DNA from: an uncultured Chitinophagaceae bacterium
Lineage (GTDB): Bacteria; Bacteroidota; Bacteroidia; Chitinophagales; LD1
Direction of reading: 5' to 3'
Assembly (NCBI GenBank): GCA_964537475.1
Contig: CAZIBY010000008.1
Coordinates: 4,200-68,199 of the forward strand
Length of the DNA stretch: 64,000 bases
Shown here: piece after piece, positions 2,410 to 42,262 of the stretch
Position numbering within the stretch: position 1 is the stretch's first letter
Layout of the letters: each line of letters starts with the position of its first letter
The notes under the pieces: model-generated
Database searches by the model: none
What the model saw: only the letters and a program-made list of their open reading frames with translations
What the model was told of the DNA's origin: nothing
Translations under genes and position numbers: made by a program

Positions 2410-2437
2410 GAATCAGAATTTGCAGGATTTTAGAATT
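2410..2437. repeat. left arm of the inverted repeat bracketing GxxExxY gene 1
   Basis: gaatcagaatttgcaggattttagaatt. Its reverse complement matches 2885..2912 at 26/28. Both mismatches are G (left) against T (right), which gives G.U pairs in the sense RNA. Confidence 0.85.
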
Positions 2438-2463
2438 GATAGAATTAATGCAGATCAGGGGAG

Positions 2464-2859
2464 ATGGAGAAGGATGAACTAACCTATACTGTCATAGGCT
2501 GCGCCATGGCTGTGTATAATAAGTTAGGTAATGGGTTCCAGGAAGTCATCTATCAGCGGTGCTTAGCCATCGAATTAGGAAAGACAAAACTGAATTTTGC
2601 ACGTGAGATAGAGCACCCTATCTTTTACGATGATATGGAGGTAGGTACCAGAAGAGCCGATTTTATCATAGAGGGTAAATTGGTGGTCGAACTAAAGGCT
2701 ATAATCAATCTTGAAGATGTACACCTGGCTCAAGCCAAAAATTATCTTGTAGCATACCAGTTTCAAAAGGGACTTCTTATTAATTTCGGCGCGACAAGCT
2801 TGCAGTACAAACTAATATTTAATAATAATAGCCAATACAAAGCGGCGACAAAAATCTGA
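2464..2859 (+). CDS. GxxExxY family protein (PD-(D/E)XK nuclease-like fold)
   Basis: GNGFQEVIY matches the GxxExxY motif. ADFII...VVELK gives a D..ExK nuclease-type motif. Length is 131 aa. Confidence 0.85.
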   Translation: MEKDELTYTVIGCAMAVYNKLGNGFQEVIYQRCLAIELGKTKLNFAREIEHPIFYDDMEVGTRRADFIIEGKLVVELKAIINLEDVHLAQAKNYLVAYQFQKGLLINFGATSLQYKLIFNNNSQYKAATKI

Positions 2860-2884
2860 TGCCGGTAGGTTGTATTATTCTGTA

Positions 2885-2912
2885 AATTCTAAAATTCTGT
2901 AAATTCTGATTC
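2885..2912. repeat. right arm of the inverted repeat bracketing GxxExxY gene 1
   Basis: aattctaaaattctgtaaattctgattc. Partner of 2410..2437. ATTCT recurs every 8-9 nt. Confidence 0.85.
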
Positions 2913-2917
2913 CCACA

Positions 2918-3862
2918 ATGTCAGCTATAAAGGATACTCAATTCAATTTTCCCGGCCAGACGGATGTCTATCACGGCAAAGTCCGCGATGTCTATTTTCT
3001 AAAAGATAAATTGATAGCTGTCGCTTCAGACCGTATCTCGGCTTTCGATCACATCCTGCCGAAGCCTATACCCTACAAAGGGCAAGTGCTGAATCAGATC
3101 GCAGCCTACTTTCTCAATGCGACACGCGATATCTGCCCCAACTGGCTGGAGGCCACACCGGACCCCAATGTTTCTATAGGCAAGAAGTGCGAGCCTATAC
3201 GGGTGGAGATGGTGATACGCGGCTACCTGGCAGGCCATTCAGCGCGTGAGTATAAGCTGGGCAAGCGTACGCTCTGCGGAGTAGCGCTGCCGGAGGGGAT
3301 GAGGGAGAATGATAAATTTCCTACACCTATCATCACGCCTGCGGCGAAAGCTATGGAAGGCCATGATGAAGATGCCAGTCGTGAAGAGATACTGGCCAAG
3401 AAGATCGTGACGCCTGAGCAATATGCGAAAATGGAGCAGTACACCTATGGGCTCTTTGCGCGGGGTACGGAGATGGCTGCCAGACAGGGCCTGATACTGG
3501 TAGATACCAAGTATGAGTTTGGCCTGTACAATGGGGAGGTATACCTGATAGATGAGATCCATACGCCGGACTCATCACGCTACTTTTATGCAGAGGGCTA
3601 TGCCGGGCGCCAGGCTGCGGGTGAGCCACAGAAGCAGCTCTCCAAAGAATTTGTACGAGAGTGGCTGATGGCAAACAATTTTGCCGGTAAAGATGGCCAG
3701 ACCATGCCATTCATGCCGGATGATTTTGTGCATACCATCACGGAGCGCTATATAGAGCTGTATGAGCGTGTGACGGGACAGAAGTTTCAGCATGCGGATA
3801 ATTCTGATATCCAGTCGCGCATAGAGAGCAACGTGAAAAAATACCTCGAGTCCGGTATTTAG
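2918..3862 (+). CDS. purC: phosphoribosylaminoimidazole-succinocarboxamide synthase (SAICAR synthase)
   Basis: Long-form PurC signature: [28 protein letters not shown]. Confidence 0.92.
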
Positions 3863-11668: not shown

Positions 11669-14056
11669 ATGCTGAGATTTTTACATTGCTTTTTCCTGAT
11701 TCTCCTGAGCCTTGCTGCTTTCTCTACACTGCAGGCACAGTCAGTGCCCAAGTATACGATATCCGGGTATATCAAAGATACCGCCAATGGTGAAGGACTG
11801 CTAGGCGCTACCATAGCCGTGGTGGAGCTGACCAAAGGTACCAATACCAATGACTACGGATTCTACTCTCTCGACCTGCCGGCAGGCCACTATACGCTCA
11901 AGGTATCCTATGTGGGCTATGAGACCCAGACCATACCACTGGATCTGACCGGCACTGTCAAAATGAACTTTGACCTGCACACCGCTGCTATGGCTACTAA
12001 AGAAATAGTGGTCACCGCAGAAAAGAAAGATGCCAATGTGACCAGTACATCTGTAGGCCGGCAGGAACTGACCATTGAAACGGTCAAATCGATACCTGCC
12101 TTTATGGGTGAGGTAGACGTGCTGAAGACGATACAACTGCTGCCGGGTGTGATGGCGGCAGGAGAGGGCAATACAGGCTTCTATGTGCGCGGTGGCGGTC
12201 CTGACCAGAATCTCGTGCTGCTGGATGAAGCTGTGGTCTATAATACAGGCCACCTGTTCGGCTTCTTCTCGGTATTCAACTCTGATGCCGTGCGGTCAGT
12301 AGCGATAGAGAAAGGAGCTATGCCGGCTCAATATGGCGGGCGCCTCTCATCTGTGGTAGATGTGAAGATGAGCGAGGGCAATATGAAGCACTGGGAGGTA
12401 GCGGGTGGCATAGGCCTGATAGCCTCAAGGCTCACAGTCCAGGGCCCACTGAAGAAGGATAAATGCTCCATCATCCTCTCCGGCAGGCGCACCTATATTG
12501 ACCTGCTCACCAAGCCATTCCTGGCTACGTATCAAGGCGGCAAATACAAAAAAGATGGCTACTACTTTTATGATCTGAATGCCAAGCTGAACTATATCAT
12601 CTCTGACAAAGACCGGCTGTTTGTCAGTGCGTATTTTGGGCGTGATGTTTTTGACTTCAAGGCTCCGGAGGGTGACTTTAATATTCATTTCCCGTGGGGC
12701 AATAGCACTGTGACCGGCCGGTGGAATCACATCTTTGGCGATAAGCTCTTCATGAATGCCATGTTCATCTACAATGACTATCGCTTTGATATCAAGTCAG
12801 ACTATCGCGGGGTAGTGTTTGGGGTGAGTAGTGATACGCGCGACCTCGGCGCTAAACTGGCCTTTGACTATTCGCCGCTGGTAGGGCATATGGTGAAGTT
12901 TGGCGTAGACTATACCAATCACATGCTCACGCCATACCAGACGCAGGGGGTCTTTGACTCTGTCAGCATACAAAATACCAATACCTCATCCAAGTATGGC
13001 CATGAGCTGGCGGCCTATGTGGCAGACGACTTTGAGGTCAATAAATGGCTCAAAATAAATCTGGGCCTGCGCGCCTCTCTTTTCTGCCTGGCGGGGCCGT
13101 ACAAGAAGAGTATTTTTGACTCGACCGGGGCCAAGGTAGACAGCCTGAACTATGCAGTAGACCAGCCGGTCAAGACCTACTACGGCCTGGAGCCGCGTGC
13201 CAGTGCTCGGTTTAAGGTAGCGAAAGCCACCTCCATCAAGGCAGGCTTCTCCCTGACCAAGCAGTACATACATCTAGTCTCAAACTCTACTACTACGTTG
13301 CCATTTGACCTCTGGGTGCCTAGCACGCTAAAGGTAAAACCTCAGATGGCGCTTCAGTACTCGCTGGGTGTCTTTCAGAACTTTCACGACAACATGTTTG
13401 AAGCTTCGATAGAGGGATACTACAAGCAGCTTTTTAATCAGATAGAGTATGGAGATAACAATGTGCCCGGCATAGATCAGGATGTAGAAGACTTCTTTGT
13501 TTTCGGCAAGGGGAGGAGCTACGGTGCTGAGTTCTTTCTCAAGAAGGCGAGAGGCAAATTTCAGGGATGGATAGGCTATACGTTGGCATGGACACAGCGC
13601 AAATTTCCCAGCATCAATAATGGTCAGTGGTTTGCAGCCAAGTATGATCGCCGCCATGACCTGAATATAGTACTGATGTACGAGATCAATCAGCGCTGGA
13701 AGCTGGGCGCTACATTCGTCTATGCCTCAGGCAATACGACCACACTACCAGTACAGTTATTCTATCAGGAGGGGACTATCCATGAGATATATGGCCCCAG
13801 AAACTTCTATCGCCTGCCGGCCTATCACCGTCTGGATCTCAGTGTGACCTATACCTTCAAGCATAAGCGCTTCCCTAAGCTCCACTCAGATCTCAATCTC
13901 TCCATCTACAATGCATACAGCCGTCAAAACCCATATTTCGTCTATGTAGATGTGCAGGGAAATCCGTATACCGGCAGTATCAAAACGTCTCTGAAGCAGG
14001 TGTCATTATTTCCGATACTGCCATCTATTACCTGGAACTTTAAATTTGGAGGATAA
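11669..14056 (+). CDS. TonB-dependent receptor with an N-terminal carboxypeptidase-regulatory-like domain
   Basis: Signal peptide from the Met at 11669. ISGYIKDTANGEGLLGATIAV is CarboxypepD_reg-like. A plug region is present, and the C-terminal beta-barrel ends in ...WNFKF. Confidence 0.85.
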   Translation: MLRFLHCFFLILLSLAAFSTLQAQSVPKYTISGYIKDTANGEGLLGATIAVVELTKGTNTNDYGFYSLDLPAGHYTLKVSYVGYETQTIPLDLTGTVKMNFDLHTAAMATKEIVVTAEKKDANVTSTSVGRQELTIETVKSIPAFMGEVDVLKTIQLLPGVMAAGEGNTGFYVRGGGPDQNLVLLDEAVVYNTGHLFGFFSVFNSDAVRSVAIEKGAMPAQYGGRLSSVVDVKMSEGNMKHWEVAGGIGLIASRLTVQGPLKKDKCSIILSGRRTYIDLLTKPFLATYQGGKYKKDGYYFYDLNAKLNYIISDKDRLFVSAYFGRDVFDFKAPEGDFNIHFPWGNSTVTGRWNHIFGDKLFMNAMFIYNDYRFDIKSDYRGVVFGVSSDTRDLGAKLAFDYSPLVGHMVKFGVDYTNHMLTPYQTQGVFDSVSIQNTNTSSKYGHELAAYVADDFEVNKWLKINLGLRASLFCLAGPYKKSIFDSTGAKVDSLNYAVDQPVKTYYGLEPRASARFKVAKATSIKAGFSLTKQYIHLVSNSTTTLPFDLWVPSTLKVKPQMALQYSLGVFQNFHDNMFEASIEGYYKQLFNQIEYGDNNVPGIDQDVEDFFVFGKGRSYGAEFFLKKARGKFQGWIGYTLAWTQRKFPSINNGQWFAAKYDRRHDLNIVLMYEINQRWKLGATFVYASGNTTTLPVQLFYQEGTIHEIYGPRNFYRLPAYHRLDLSVTYTFKHKRFPKLHSDLNLSIYNAYSRQNPYFVYVDVQGNPYTGSIKTSLKQVSLFPILPSITWNFKFGG

Positions 14057-22187: not shown

Positions 22188-22219
22188 TTTGAACCACATA
22201 GGACACATAGATCACATAG
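22188..22219. repeat. left arm of the perfect 32-bp inverted repeat bracketing GxxExxY gene 2
   Basis: tttgaaccacataggacacatagatcacatag. CACATAG occurs at 22195, 22204 and 22213 (9-nt period). Confidence 0.9.
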
Positions 22220-22239
22220 GATATACATTGATACAATTT

Positions 22240-22671
22240 CTACTCATCGGGGAGGTCTTTGTAGGAGTCATTGACAAAGGTTTCCTGACCCAGTTTGAAA
22301 ATATTGTATGCGTTAAAATTAATAACAATTCCTTTGTGTGCCCTGAGCAATGTCATATAACTCAGGACCTGAGCACGATGTATAGGTAATATACTCTCTA
22401 CGGTTTTCAGCTCTACCACAAAACAATCCTCCACCAGTACATCGCATCTGAGGTCTGCCATCACATCTAGTCCTTTATAGACTACGGGGACCGACAGTTC
22501 CGTGCGACAGCGCAGCCCGATCAATCTTAATTCATGCTCAAAACACTTTTGATAGGTACTTTCCAACAGGCCATGCCCCATATGTTTTTGTACCTCGATA
22601 GCAGCACCGATCACCCTGTAGGTTAATTCATCTAGCCACTTCTTGGTTATCCTTGGTTTGTTTTCTTCCAT
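22240..22671 (-). CDS. GxxExxY family protein (PD-(D/E)XK nuclease-like fold)
   Basis: GHGLLESTY matches GxxExxY. CDVLV...VVELK gives D..ExK. By eye it is roughly one-third identical to the 2464..2859 copy. Confidence 0.85.
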   Translation of the reverse strand: MEENKPRITKKWLDELTYRVIGAAIEVQKHMGHGLLESTYQKCFEHELRLIGLRCRTELSVPVVYKGLDVMADLRCDVLVEDCFVVELKTVESILPIHRAQVLSYMTLLRAHKGIVINFNAYNIFKLGQETFVNDSYKDLPDE

Positions 22672-22707
22672 TATAGATTCAAAGTCTAATGTTCTCTGAG
22701 TAAATTT

Positions 22708-22739
22708 CTATGTGATCTATGTGTCCTATGTGGTTCAAA
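22708..22739. repeat. right arm of the perfect 32-bp inverted repeat bracketing GxxExxY gene 2
   Basis: ctatgtgatctatgtgtcctatgtggttcaaa is the exact reverse complement of 22188..22219. It overlaps the stop codon (22735-22737) of the KS gene. Confidence 0.9.
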
Positions 22740-40898: not shown

Positions 40899-41444
40899 AT
40901 GCGCAAACTCCAAAACTCAGAGCTCACCCGCCTCACCCCTGAGCAGTTCAAAGCTAATGAGAAGCTACCCGTCATCATCGTGCTGGACAATGTCCGCTCG
41001 CACCTGAATGTCGGCTCTGTCTTCCGCTCTGCAGATGCCTTTCTCATAGAGGCCATCTACCTCTGCGGCATCACCGGCACACCCCCGCACCGCGACATTC
41101 ACAAGGCCGCCCTCGGCGCCACAGAGACTGTAGAGTGGAAATACTTTGACACCACCGCAGCAGCCATAGACAAACTCAAAACCAAAGGCTATCAAATTGC
41201 CTCCATAGAGCAAGCCGAAAACGCCACCATGCTCCACGATCTGAACTACGCAGGAGAAAAACTAGCCTTAGTATTCGGCAACGAAGTAGACGGCGTAGAC
41301 CAGCAGATCGTCACCGCCTCTGATAAAGTAATAGAGATACCACAATACGGCACCAAGCATTCACTCAATATCTCAGTATCGGTAGGGATTGTTTTGTGGG
41401 AGATCGCCAGGAATACAGGTATCACAGAGCGCACAAAGGTTTGA
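40899..41444 (+). CDS. TrmH/SpoU family RNA 2'-O-methyltransferase
   Basis: SpoU motifs VLDNVRSHLNVGSVFRSADAF, LVFGNEVDGV and IPQYGTKHSLNISVSVGIVLWE. The Met at 40899 is preferred over the track start. Confidence 0.85.
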   Translation: MRKLQNSELTRLTPEQFKANEKLPVIIVLDNVRSHLNVGSVFRSADAFLIEAIYLCGITGTPPHRDIHKAALGATETVEWKYFDTTAAAIDKLKTKGYQIASIEQAENATMLHDLNYAGEKLALVFGNEVDGVDQQIVTASDKVIEIPQYGTKHSLNISVSVGIVLWEIARNTGITERTKV

Positions 41445-41492
41445 GTAAAACAGCCAATTTGAGAACACAAAGCAACTACGTTACTTCTCCAT

Positions 41493-41665
41493 GACCTCAA
41501 ACAATCAGCTTTATGAGTTAGAAAATCTCTATGAACTCTGTGTAGTAAGGCTGTTGAGTTTGTATTCCTCCGTGATCTCAAACAATCAGCTCTATGAGTA
41601 ATAAAACCTCTGTGTCCTCTGTGATAAAGGCCGTTCAAACTCTGAGCCTCTGTGTAGTAAACCTC
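41493..41665. repeat. tandem repeat of about 81 bp (2 full copies plus a partial third) in a convergent spacer
   Basis: Copy A starts at 41493 and copy B at 41574. They share ctcaaacaatcagct.tatgagt...ctct.tg...ctctgtg and are about three-quarters identical by eye. CCTCTGTG 8-mers occur at 41607 and 41616 (9 nt apart) and again at 41647. Confidence 0.75.
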
Positions 41666-42262
41666 CTACAAACGAACGACCACCTCCGCCCCCTCATACT
41701 CATACTCCTCATTAGAGCAGATGATCACGATGCGCTGCTGTGGATCATTCTTCACCAGCGTATTTGTCCAGTCGCGCCAGTGATGGTCCATATTCGCAGT
41801 AGGCTCATCGAGCAGCAGGATGTCGCTCTGCGTGTAGTAGGCCAGCGCCATTTTCACACGCTGCTTCATACCTGAGGAGCAGTCGCGTATTTCTTTCGTA
41901 GCGGGTATATCTATTGCTTTGAGCAGATCAGCCGCAGTGATGCCATGCAGCGACCGCATCTGCTGGTGAAAGGCCACCATCTCAGCCACGGTCAGCTCCT
42001 CCGGCAGGTCCAGGTAGGGCGCACTATAGCTGATGTGTTTGTATATCTCATCGGCAGGGATCGTACCGCCATTGTGCGTATAGGTCACCTTGCCCTCATT
42101 GGGCGTTACCATGCCGGAGATCACTTTTAGCAGCGTGCTTTTGCCGGAGCCATTAGCTCCGGTGATCGCATACCTGCCGCCGGGCTCAAAGATGGCCGAC
42201 ACGCCGCGGTAGATCCACTGGCTGCCGTACTTCTTGGAGACCTTGTCCAGCTCAATCCTCAT
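41666..42262 (-). CDS. ABC transporter ATP-binding protein (short, 198 aa)
   Basis: Walker A GANGSGKST, signature-like SSGMKQR, Walker B ILLLDEP. It overlaps lpxA by 11 nt. Confidence 0.8.
   Translation of the reverse strand: MRIELDKVSKKYGSQWIYRGVSAIFEPGGRYAITGANGSGKSTLLKVISGMVTPNEGKVTYTHNGGTIPADEIYKHISYSAPYLDLPEELTVAEMVAFHQQMRSLHGITAADLLKAIDIPATKEIRDCSSGMKQRVKMALAYYTQSDILLLDEPTANMDHHWRDWTNTLVKNDPQQRIVIICSNEEYEYEGAEVVVRL

Follow-up and report, generated by a model that had tools for sequence, protein, structure and literature searches.

A GxxExxY nuclease gene between phoH and purC as a likely copy of a dispersed cassette family with conserved terminal repeats

Miniature inverted-repeat transposable elements (MITEs) and their autonomous partners, such as Correia/NEMIS of Neisseria, are intergenic and co-transcribed, carry conserved terminal inverted repeats (TIRs), and occur both with and without an open reading frame (ORF). 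RAYTs, the transposases associated with repetitive extragenic palindromic (REP) sequences, are HUH/Y1 enzymes and usually single-copy, while homing genes, among them the gene of the PD-(D/E)XK homing endonuclease I-Ssp6803I, each have a single cognate site and lack terminal inverted repeats. The intervening sequence of Coxiella 23S rRNA is 428 nt long, low in GC content and processed by RNase III, and it has a small ORF and a 28-bp terminal stem (PMC4990558). Here we compare these systems with a cassette found in 64,000 nucleotides of DNA from an uncultured Chitinophagaceae bacterium (contig CAZIBY010000008.1, positions 4,200 to 68,199; this whole stretch is called the window), where a gene for a RecB/Cas4-type PD-(D/E)XK nuclease of the GxxExxY family is enclosed by two inverted arms between phoH and purC (cassette 1). 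An earlier reading based on the letters of the sequence only (the sequence-only reading) had attributed the arms to selection on an RNA stem. Our results indicate that the arms are very probably the terminal repeats of a mobile cassette family.

The cassette is akin to known selfish TIR-flanked cassettes that resemble rRNA intervening sequences. With the ORF-bearing 23S rRNA intervening sequences of Coxiella and Leptospira (S23p/PF05635) it shares a length of ~0.45 kb, one small ORF, TIRs of ~28 bp, a GC content lower than that of the host, a sporadic distribution, horizontal transfer followed by vertical descent, and sense insertion in a transcribed unit (PMC4990558). TIRs around a small ORF within ~0.4-0.5 kb are thus found in both, but the GxxExxY cassettes lie at protein-gene junctions (here phoH-purC) and not in rRNA helices, their ORF encodes a PD-(D/E)XK nuclease rather than a four-helix-bundle protein, and their arms are arrays of a conserved motif. 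The likeness to MITEs consists of the TIRs, the intergenic site, the presumed co-transcription with adjoining genes, and the presence of ORF-less foldbacks of 80-110 bp beside ORF-bearing copies; unlike MITEs, the cassette has no target-site duplication, its ends are iterated 6-7-nt units and not a single TIR, and its only ORF encodes a RecB/Cas4-like nuclease of 130 residues and not a DDE transposase. As in the REP/REPIN-RAYT systems (REPINs being inverted REP doublets), a small gene is flanked by an inverted short motif that is specific to the protein subfamily and also occurs as dispersed hairpin doublets, whereas the protein is of the PD-(D/E)XK type and the cassette with its ORF exists in many dispersed copies. 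Free-standing phage homing endonuclease genes are likewise small nuclease genes that sit between neighbours of the same orientation and rely on the host for transcription, yet one GxxExxY subfamily is found at dozens of unrelated sites with conserved terminal repeats, and not at a single cognate site. Integron gene cassettes differ in that the GxxExxY cassettes are solitary in ordinary operons and have two arms, with no integrase in the loci examined.

The evidence for mobility comes from the recurrence of the arms at unrelated sites. More than 8000 GxxExxY homologues were retrieved, many of which are 75-80% identical to the window protein though they come from other orders (Mucilaginibacter, Ferruginibacter, Kapabacteria). 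In Mucilaginibacter celer and in a JGI contig set, the homologue lies between leuC and leuD and carries the arm sequence of the window, and in another contig set the same arms enclose a homologue located between hypothetical genes. A metagenome scan added 80 further loci with 63-79% protein identity. When anchored at the terminus, the arms gave one consensus, TTG TCTGAATCAG[A/G]ATTTnCAG[A/G]ATTnnAG[A/G]ATTnACAG[A/G]AT, so that an arm of this subfamily is composed of the conserved terminus TTGTCTGAATCAG and then about four CAG[A/G]AT units (6-7 nt) repeated every 8-9 nt. Information content was high in the units and approximately zero between them and from 3 nt outside the terminus, the latter drop marking the ends of the element. 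The element is ~450-500 bp long, and its arms of ~40 nt have the same sequence in opposite orientation; as expected of TIR elements and MITEs, the same terminal repeats stand at many unrelated loci. The arm sequence had been treated as idiosyncratic to the phoH-purC locus, an emphasis that proved mistaken, as members of the protein subfamily have conserved arms at many unrelated sites. The presence of the same arms at dozens of unrelated junctions, together with the ORF-less foldbacks, argues that the arms are sequence-conserved terminal repeats of a mobile cassette. From this distribution alone, we infer that the cassette, as one unit, would have reached numerous junctions as well as phage DNA, and positions 2407-2915 are likely to represent one copy of a widespread selfish family, ~450-500 bp in length, with a single promoter-less nuclease gene between two arms.

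The insertion sites have a consistent geometry. Both neighbouring genes were co-oriented with the cassette at 24 of the 28 loci where both could be called. The upstream stop codon typically precedes the left terminus by 2-6 nt or falls within the left arm, by up to 27 nt, and the downstream ATG often lies 3-6 nt past the right terminus. In many copies the cassette ORF enters the full-length right arm and ends at a unit TAA, and the favoured distances between stop codon and terminus are 13, 22 and 38 nt. The neighbouring genes are diverse, examples being RNase R with polyprenyl synthase, leuC or ilvC with an ABM monooxygenase, and FtsX. The leuC frame ends within the arm in Mucilaginibacter, and in two loci (L053, 2923-2956; L064, 2954-2981) it was observed to run into the left arm and stop there (...SESEFAEL*), so that a housekeeping gene owes its C-terminal residues and stop codon to the cassette. 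Type I restriction-modification (R-M) operons host at least 17 of the 80 cassettes (at least 21%), always in the sense orientation (L075, L092, L095, L098, L099, L103-L107, L115, L124, L127, L130, L133, L139 and L149), at positions such as hsdS/hsdR, hsdR/hsdM and hsdM/hsdS; several of these adjoin Fic, Bro-N or DUF4143 genes. No direct repeat indicative of a target-site duplication flanked the termini at the ~50 loci inspected by eye, no recombinase or integrase gene was seen near cassettes in the loci examined, and a plasmid search returned distant homologues only.

Derivatives that lack the ORF were detected when viral contigs (IMG/VR) were searched with the exact 18-nt terminus. Foldbacks of 80-110 bp, each made of a left and a right arm with cassette termini, are present in L177, L178 (8273-8375) and L179 (5302-5389), tandem solo left arms occur among the derivatives, and in one phage contig (L170) a left arm stands directly upstream of the start codon of a DNA methyltransferase gene. 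Further phage contigs carrying arm derivatives are L166, L167, L171, L173 and L175. ORF-less arm pairs also adjoin complete cassettes in L006, L097 and L117. Two other searches yielded little: searching the viral contigs by protein produced 2 loci only, and a search with the arm pattern of a second cassette in the window (cassette 2, described below) produced no loci. Non-autonomous derivatives coexisting with presence/absence polymorphism are characteristic of transposable elements and MITEs, and both were found here, the former as foldbacks and the latter as decayed copies (L003, L005) and empty distant sites at the phoH-purC junction.

This junction was followed in relatives by a PhoH scan of species-representative genomes, which gave 52 loci. 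The cassette is present between phoH and purC in the closest relatives, which are uncultured Chitinophagales-like metagenome-assembled genomes (MAGs; L001, L002, L004, L006 and L008). L005 has kept both arms and has suffered an internal deletion of the ORF that leaves the first ~30 and last ~26 codons, and L003, whose PhoH is 98% identical, has a 102-nt spacer in which the sole remnant is an 18-nt ORF relic. In six more distant Chitinophagales, phoH and purC are adjacent and separated by cassette-free spacers of 68-85 nt, and the expectation that the spacer would be short and empty in relatives was thus borne out for the more distant ones. The number of arm units varies among the orthologues, the left arm of L002 being ~17 nt short, and an extra GCAGAAT unit outside the terminus is found in the window and three relatives. 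The distribution at this junction indicates that the cassette was gained in an ancestor of the clade, then descended vertically, and is dispensable; the phoH-purC copy thus appears, from comparison of these sequences, to have been acquired by the clade ancestor and vertically inherited, its termini decaying and the copy being partly or wholly deleted in two relatives. A cassette-free relative, L013, has a 15-nt spacer (CTGATCTGAATCATT) that matches 9 of 11 bases of the cassette's terminal palindrome TCTGAATCAGA, a resemblance that may be fortuitous or may mark a native target or the scar of an excision. The fused terminal palindrome GTCTGA[A/T]TCAGAC was considered as an empty target or excision scar and rejected, since none was present in 813 kb of loci, the only approximation being the 9/11 match of L013.

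In the window, phoH (1416-2387, + strand; PF02562, E = 2.6e-91) ends 19 nt before the cassette terminus. The interval between them (2388-2406, + strand) is filled by extra GCAGAAT-type units (GCAGAATAGGCAGAAATGA) that, from the sequence and the orthologue comparison, look like outward slippage of the unit array; L004 lacks such units and the phoH TAG abuts the terminus. The left terminal arm (2407-2446, + strand) consists of TCTGAATCAG followed by the units CAGGAT, TAGAAT and TAGAAT, and its terminus is slightly degenerate, with A in place of G before TCTGA (ATCTGA...). The GxxExxY ORF (2464-2859, + strand; 131 residues) is followed by the right terminal arm (2876-2915, + strand; TATTCTG TAAATTCT AAAATTCTG TAAATTCTGATTCCCA), whose terminus is also degenerate, having CCCA (...TTCCCA) where the family has CAGA. 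The purC ATG is 3 nt past the right arm (purC, 2918-3862, + strand; PF01259, E = 6e-69). The complete copy probably extends from 2407 to 2915, and its slightly degenerate termini fit an old, immobilised copy. The arms as originally noticed, 2410-2437 (GAATCAGAATTTGCAGGATTTTAGAATT) and 2885-2912, lie within these terminal arms and leave linkers of 26 and 25 nt to the ORF. They are complementary at 26 of 28 positions, and the two mismatches, G2422 opposite T2900 and G2426 opposite T2896, would be G.U pairs in a + strand transcript. This part of the sequence-only reading was confirmed, as the best 28-mer in 2000 shuffles of both spacers reached at most 20/28; a repeat finder also reported a looser inverted repeat of 49 nt at 80% (2397-2445 and 2877-2925). 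That the arms are built of short repeated units (AGAAT/AGGAT) likewise held: exact 6-mer triples with a spacing of 8-10 nt occurred six times in the 64-kb window, all in the arms of the two cassettes, compared with zero to one time in 20 shuffles. The GC fraction of cassette 1 is 0.33-0.40, versus 0.51-0.53 in the adjoining genes, and phoH, the cassette ORF and purC are all on the + strand.

The encoded protein belongs to TIGR04256 (E = 3e-37; 127.5 bits against a cut-off of 35) and PF13366 (PDDEXK_3; E = 1e-36; 126.3 bits against a cut-off of 22). When 40 diverse members were aligned, G24, E27, Y30, D66, E76, K78, Q90 and Y94 proved invariant; E27, D66, E76-x-K78 and Q90-xxx-Y94 match the E, D, ExK and QxxxY motifs of RecB/Cas4 nucleases, and all of these catalytic residues are intact in the window protein. 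The AlphaFold model (predicted local distance difference test score of 92) has the core fold of these enzymes, its best matches among solved structures being the Cas4 proteins SSO0001 and Pcal_0546 (4ic1, 4r5q), followed by lambda exonuclease, MGME1 and the nuclease domains of AddB/AdnB. In contrast to Cas4 and RecB, the GxxExxY protein has only ~130 residues, the fold alignment covers only 50-60%, and there is no CRISPR context. No solved homologue was detected by sequence in the PDB, and PHROGs and PADLOC gave only weak Cas4-like matches. The ratio of non-synonymous to synonymous substitution rates (dN/dS) between the window gene and its orthologues is 0.03-0.055, similar to that of phoH, from which the gene seems to have been held functional through long vertical descent under strong purifying selection. 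Judging by the conserved residues and the model, the nuclease looks active.

Cassette 2 (22188-22739, - strand) belongs to a different subfamily and has perfect 32-nt arms (22188-22219 and 22708-22739) composed of TTTGAACCACATAG and CACATAG units. Its ORF (22240-22671) lies between ketoacyl synthase and halogenase-like genes, all on the - strand. The proteins of the two cassettes are 33% identical, in keeping with the proposal that what they have in common is an architecture and not a recent duplication; co-orientation with the host operon also held for both. The same junction is occupied in L153 (81% protein identity) and L154 (67%), where the flanking genes have diverged to a similar degree. 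Arms are perfect or near-perfect in cassette 2 and both orthologues, and the bases between the units differ among the three genomes in both arms at once (GA/AT, AG and AA/AG); such matched arms, which are seen in some lineages, could be due to selection for pairing, to exchange between arms, or to recent insertion. At another junction, a homologue with 59% identity (L157) retains the GAACCACATAG terminus and the units, with imperfect arms. Members from four other phyla were found with their own heptamers of the CACNNAG type: CACGAAG in Gammaproteobacteria (L181; arms matching at 30/32), CACGGAG in Acidobacteria (L184; 29/30), CACAGAG in Verrucomicrobia (L161; 26/29) and CAGAGA in Anaerolineae (L163). 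The upstream gene is co-oriented in all four, as is the downstream gene except in L163, and the architecture thus recurs in five phyla and belongs to the family as a whole, as the sequence-only reading had suspected. In L154 (~1440-2080), what is left of older termini, TTTAAAACCA on the left side and CCCTATGTGGTTTAAA ~75 nt beyond the right arm, encloses an inner element with GCCACATAG termini, an arrangement that suggests re-invasion or turnover of arms at one site.

The two G:T mismatches had been interpreted as a sign that the arms are selected to pair as RNA. If so, the cassette would be an RNA element like an rRNA intervening sequence, in which RNase III cutting frees the cassette mRNA and separates the phoH and purC messages, and the conservation of the arms would be secondary. 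The predicted fold of the + strand RNA indeed includes the long-range stem (-147.6 kcal/mol, z = -3.5), and the antisense strand folds more weakly (-117.8 kcal/mol, z = -1.2); in addition, the cassettes are strictly sense-oriented and placed exactly between cistrons, the 428-nt Coxiella element, the nearest analogue so far described, is similar and is cut by RNase III (PMC4990558), and near-perfect arms exist in several lineages. However, a census of pairing over 40 nt per arm in 49 distinct copies of the subfamily counted 1503 Watson-Crick pairs, 322 non-wobble mismatches, 79 antisense-only G.U pairs and 56 sense G.U pairs (an earlier, narrower census counted 1108, 143, 33 and 25, respectively), and no excess of G.U on the transcribed strand was found in the 49 copies. 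At the non-motif columns 16, 24, 25, 32, 33 and 40, the match between the arms of one element (0.31, 0.43, 0.45, 0.27, 0.24 and 0.35) was about equal to that between arms of different elements (0.35, 0.34, 0.40, 0.34, 0.30 and 0.36), arguing that pairing is not maintained there. Among 23 copies, 11-17 are unpaired at columns 16, 32, 33 and 40, and the sense strand is rich in A at the non-motif positions of both arms, giving rise to A.A oppositions. The G2422:T2900 mismatch is column 16, unpaired in 11 of the 23 aligned copies, and G2426:T2896 reflects the mixture of AGAAT and AGGAT units; both recur in the close orthologue L001 and so count as one lineage event. We conclude that the G.U asymmetry is not evidence for selection at the RNA level.

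Covariation, which the sequence-only reading had proposed as a check, naming its absence as evidence against the stem, gave a divided answer. In 23 long-armed copies, 82.6% of cells were paired versus 77.3%, and the covariation score was 0.224 versus 0.130, both values lying above every shuffle. The signal came from columns 11, 20, 28 and 37, the A/G position of the unit, whose states are bimodal: G is absent from both arms in 18 copies, and 19 copies have at least three G in each arm. The change between AGAAT and AGGAT affects all eight units at once, and the four units of one arm change jointly, which base pairing does not require, whereas a shared recognition motif or homogenisation of the array does. 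The units of both arms therefore change from A to G in concert, and cassette 2 shows its mirrored changes, but no compensatory change was detected at the non-motif positions of subfamily 1 in the 49 copies; as partial covariation exists, its absence was not cleanly found either. No Rfam match was obtained at E <= 1. CsrA-type GGA sites in the arms were also considered and dropped, since the AGAAT-type units contain no GGA. On this evidence, we regard selection for RNA pairing as an unlikely basis for the arms. It is improbable as well, in our judgement, that the arms are sites for an unlinked recombinase or transposase, which would move the cassette in trans (in the manner of MITEs or integron cassettes) with the nuclease as a passenger beneficial to the host, for example a repair or defence accessory. 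The ORF-less derivatives, including the left arm before the phage DNA methyltransferase gene, the possibly similar architecture around a 23S_rRNA_IVP gene (see below), the strong purifying selection on vertical orthologues, the frequency of cassettes in type I R-M operons and the exonuclease-like rather than integrase-like fold are all compatible with movement in trans, but the arm motif is specific to each protein subfamily and diverges with it (physical linkage alone could explain this), no recombinase was seen near the cassettes examined, and the cassettes are solitary at ordinary operon junctions, not arrayed beside an integrase. Finally, the spacers are AT-rich and repetitive, and the repeat might have been a functionless local artefact of low complexity; this is refuted by the shuffles and by the recurrence of the arms at more than 50 independent loci.

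We therefore favour the reading in which the arms are cis-acting DNA ends. The encoded nuclease, or an oligomer formed by it, would most likely recognise the arms at the level of DNA, and expression would be by read-through from the host operon. The A-rich and TAA-rich non-motif positions on the sense strand of both arms may serve to terminate the upstream ORF and the cassette ORF, and the 26/28 complementarity would be a by-product of the same motif array in both arms. The RNA stem can form, and RNase III may cleave it as it does in rRNA intervening sequences, but the stem would not be what selection acts on. That the GxxExxY nuclease is itself the mobility enzyme, acting on DNA, we propose tentatively. 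In its broadest form, the proposal would make the GxxExxY cassettes, perhaps together with those rRNA intervening sequences that bear an ORF, a so far unrecognised and very abundant class of minimal autonomous mobile elements across phyla, having a RecB/Cas4-like nuclease of ~130 residues as sole protein and iterated CACNNAG-type ends, and inserting at operon stop/start junctions without target duplication and without a DDE, HUH, serine or tyrosine recombinase; this generalisation is rather doubtful at present.

Several observations weigh against this interpretation. No insertion event, excision product, or exact empty/filled junction or pair was observed among the loci, the case for mobility resting on distribution. 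Non-motif bases, too, are complementary (~15/20 by hand count) in the cassette 2 orthologues and in the copies from Gammaproteobacteria and Acidobacteria, and the mirrored differences between genomes suggest a force that favours pairing or homogenises the arms. The low dN/dS is unexpected for a purely selfish immobile gene and points to host benefit, addiction or repeated re-invasion. The nearest folds, Cas4 and lambda exonuclease, are end-processing exonucleases and not site-specific endonucleases or known transposases. In addition, the Verrucomicrobial locus L161 (Rariglobus hedericola) has, 3 kb from its GxxExxY cassette, a gene for a four-helix-bundle protein of PF05635 (23S_rRNA_IVP; 13318-13665, - strand) with weak inverted TAAGGT/ACCTTA arms (11-nt repeat, p ~0.015); if such arms prove general, arms cannot depend on the GxxExxY protein. 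The same locus hints, from its sequence, that the GxxExxY and PF05635 families of small ORFs share an architecture.

The literature mentions the GxxExxY family incidentally, and a survey of PD-(D/E)XK proteins in 2012 lists it as 'function unknown'. No description of the cassette or of a GxxExxY function was found in full-text literature, most subscription-journal papers being outside reach, so that an earlier description is possible. The genes sit in a defined cassette that has subfamily-specific unit ends, ORF-less derivatives and a marked preference for inserting in the sense orientation where operon genes meet. What was an annotation label thereby becomes a mobile-element hypothesis that can be tested, and should the nuclease prove to be a transposase, the cassettes would constitute a new class of mobile element. 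The results may also bear on the 30-year-old question of where ORF-bearing rRNA intervening sequences came from, the PF05635 gene of L161 being one weak direct hint. The practical consequences are interrupted operons, host genes whose 3' ends are lengthened or replaced (leuC), an over-representation of cassettes in type I R-M operons, and breaks in metagenome assemblies.

Three minor observations concern the assemblies and the remainder of the window. An exact look-up of the window's PurC found one short Logan contig with an identical protein (L180); it begins only 54 nt upstream of the cassette ORF, near the left arm, and this edge suggests that the repetitive arms break up short-read assemblies and that the number of cassettes in MAGs is an underestimate. 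L001 and L153 are two contigs of one MAG, SZAS-56; its PhoH is 100% identical to that of the window, while on the other contig the ketoacyl synthase is ~82% and the cassette 2 protein ~81% identical, and either the window is from a different genome or the MAG mixes strains. Lastly, an intergenic region at 41420-41680 (no strand assigned) contains inverted CACAGAG/CTCTGTG units and no ORF, with an 82% inverted repeat (41420-41447 and 41599-41626) and a 23-nt direct repeat, TCAAACAATCAGCT[T/C]TATGAGT. The CACAGAG heptamer also flanks the Verrucomicrobial GxxExxY gene, and this region may therefore be the relic of a third cassette, belonging to a third subfamily.

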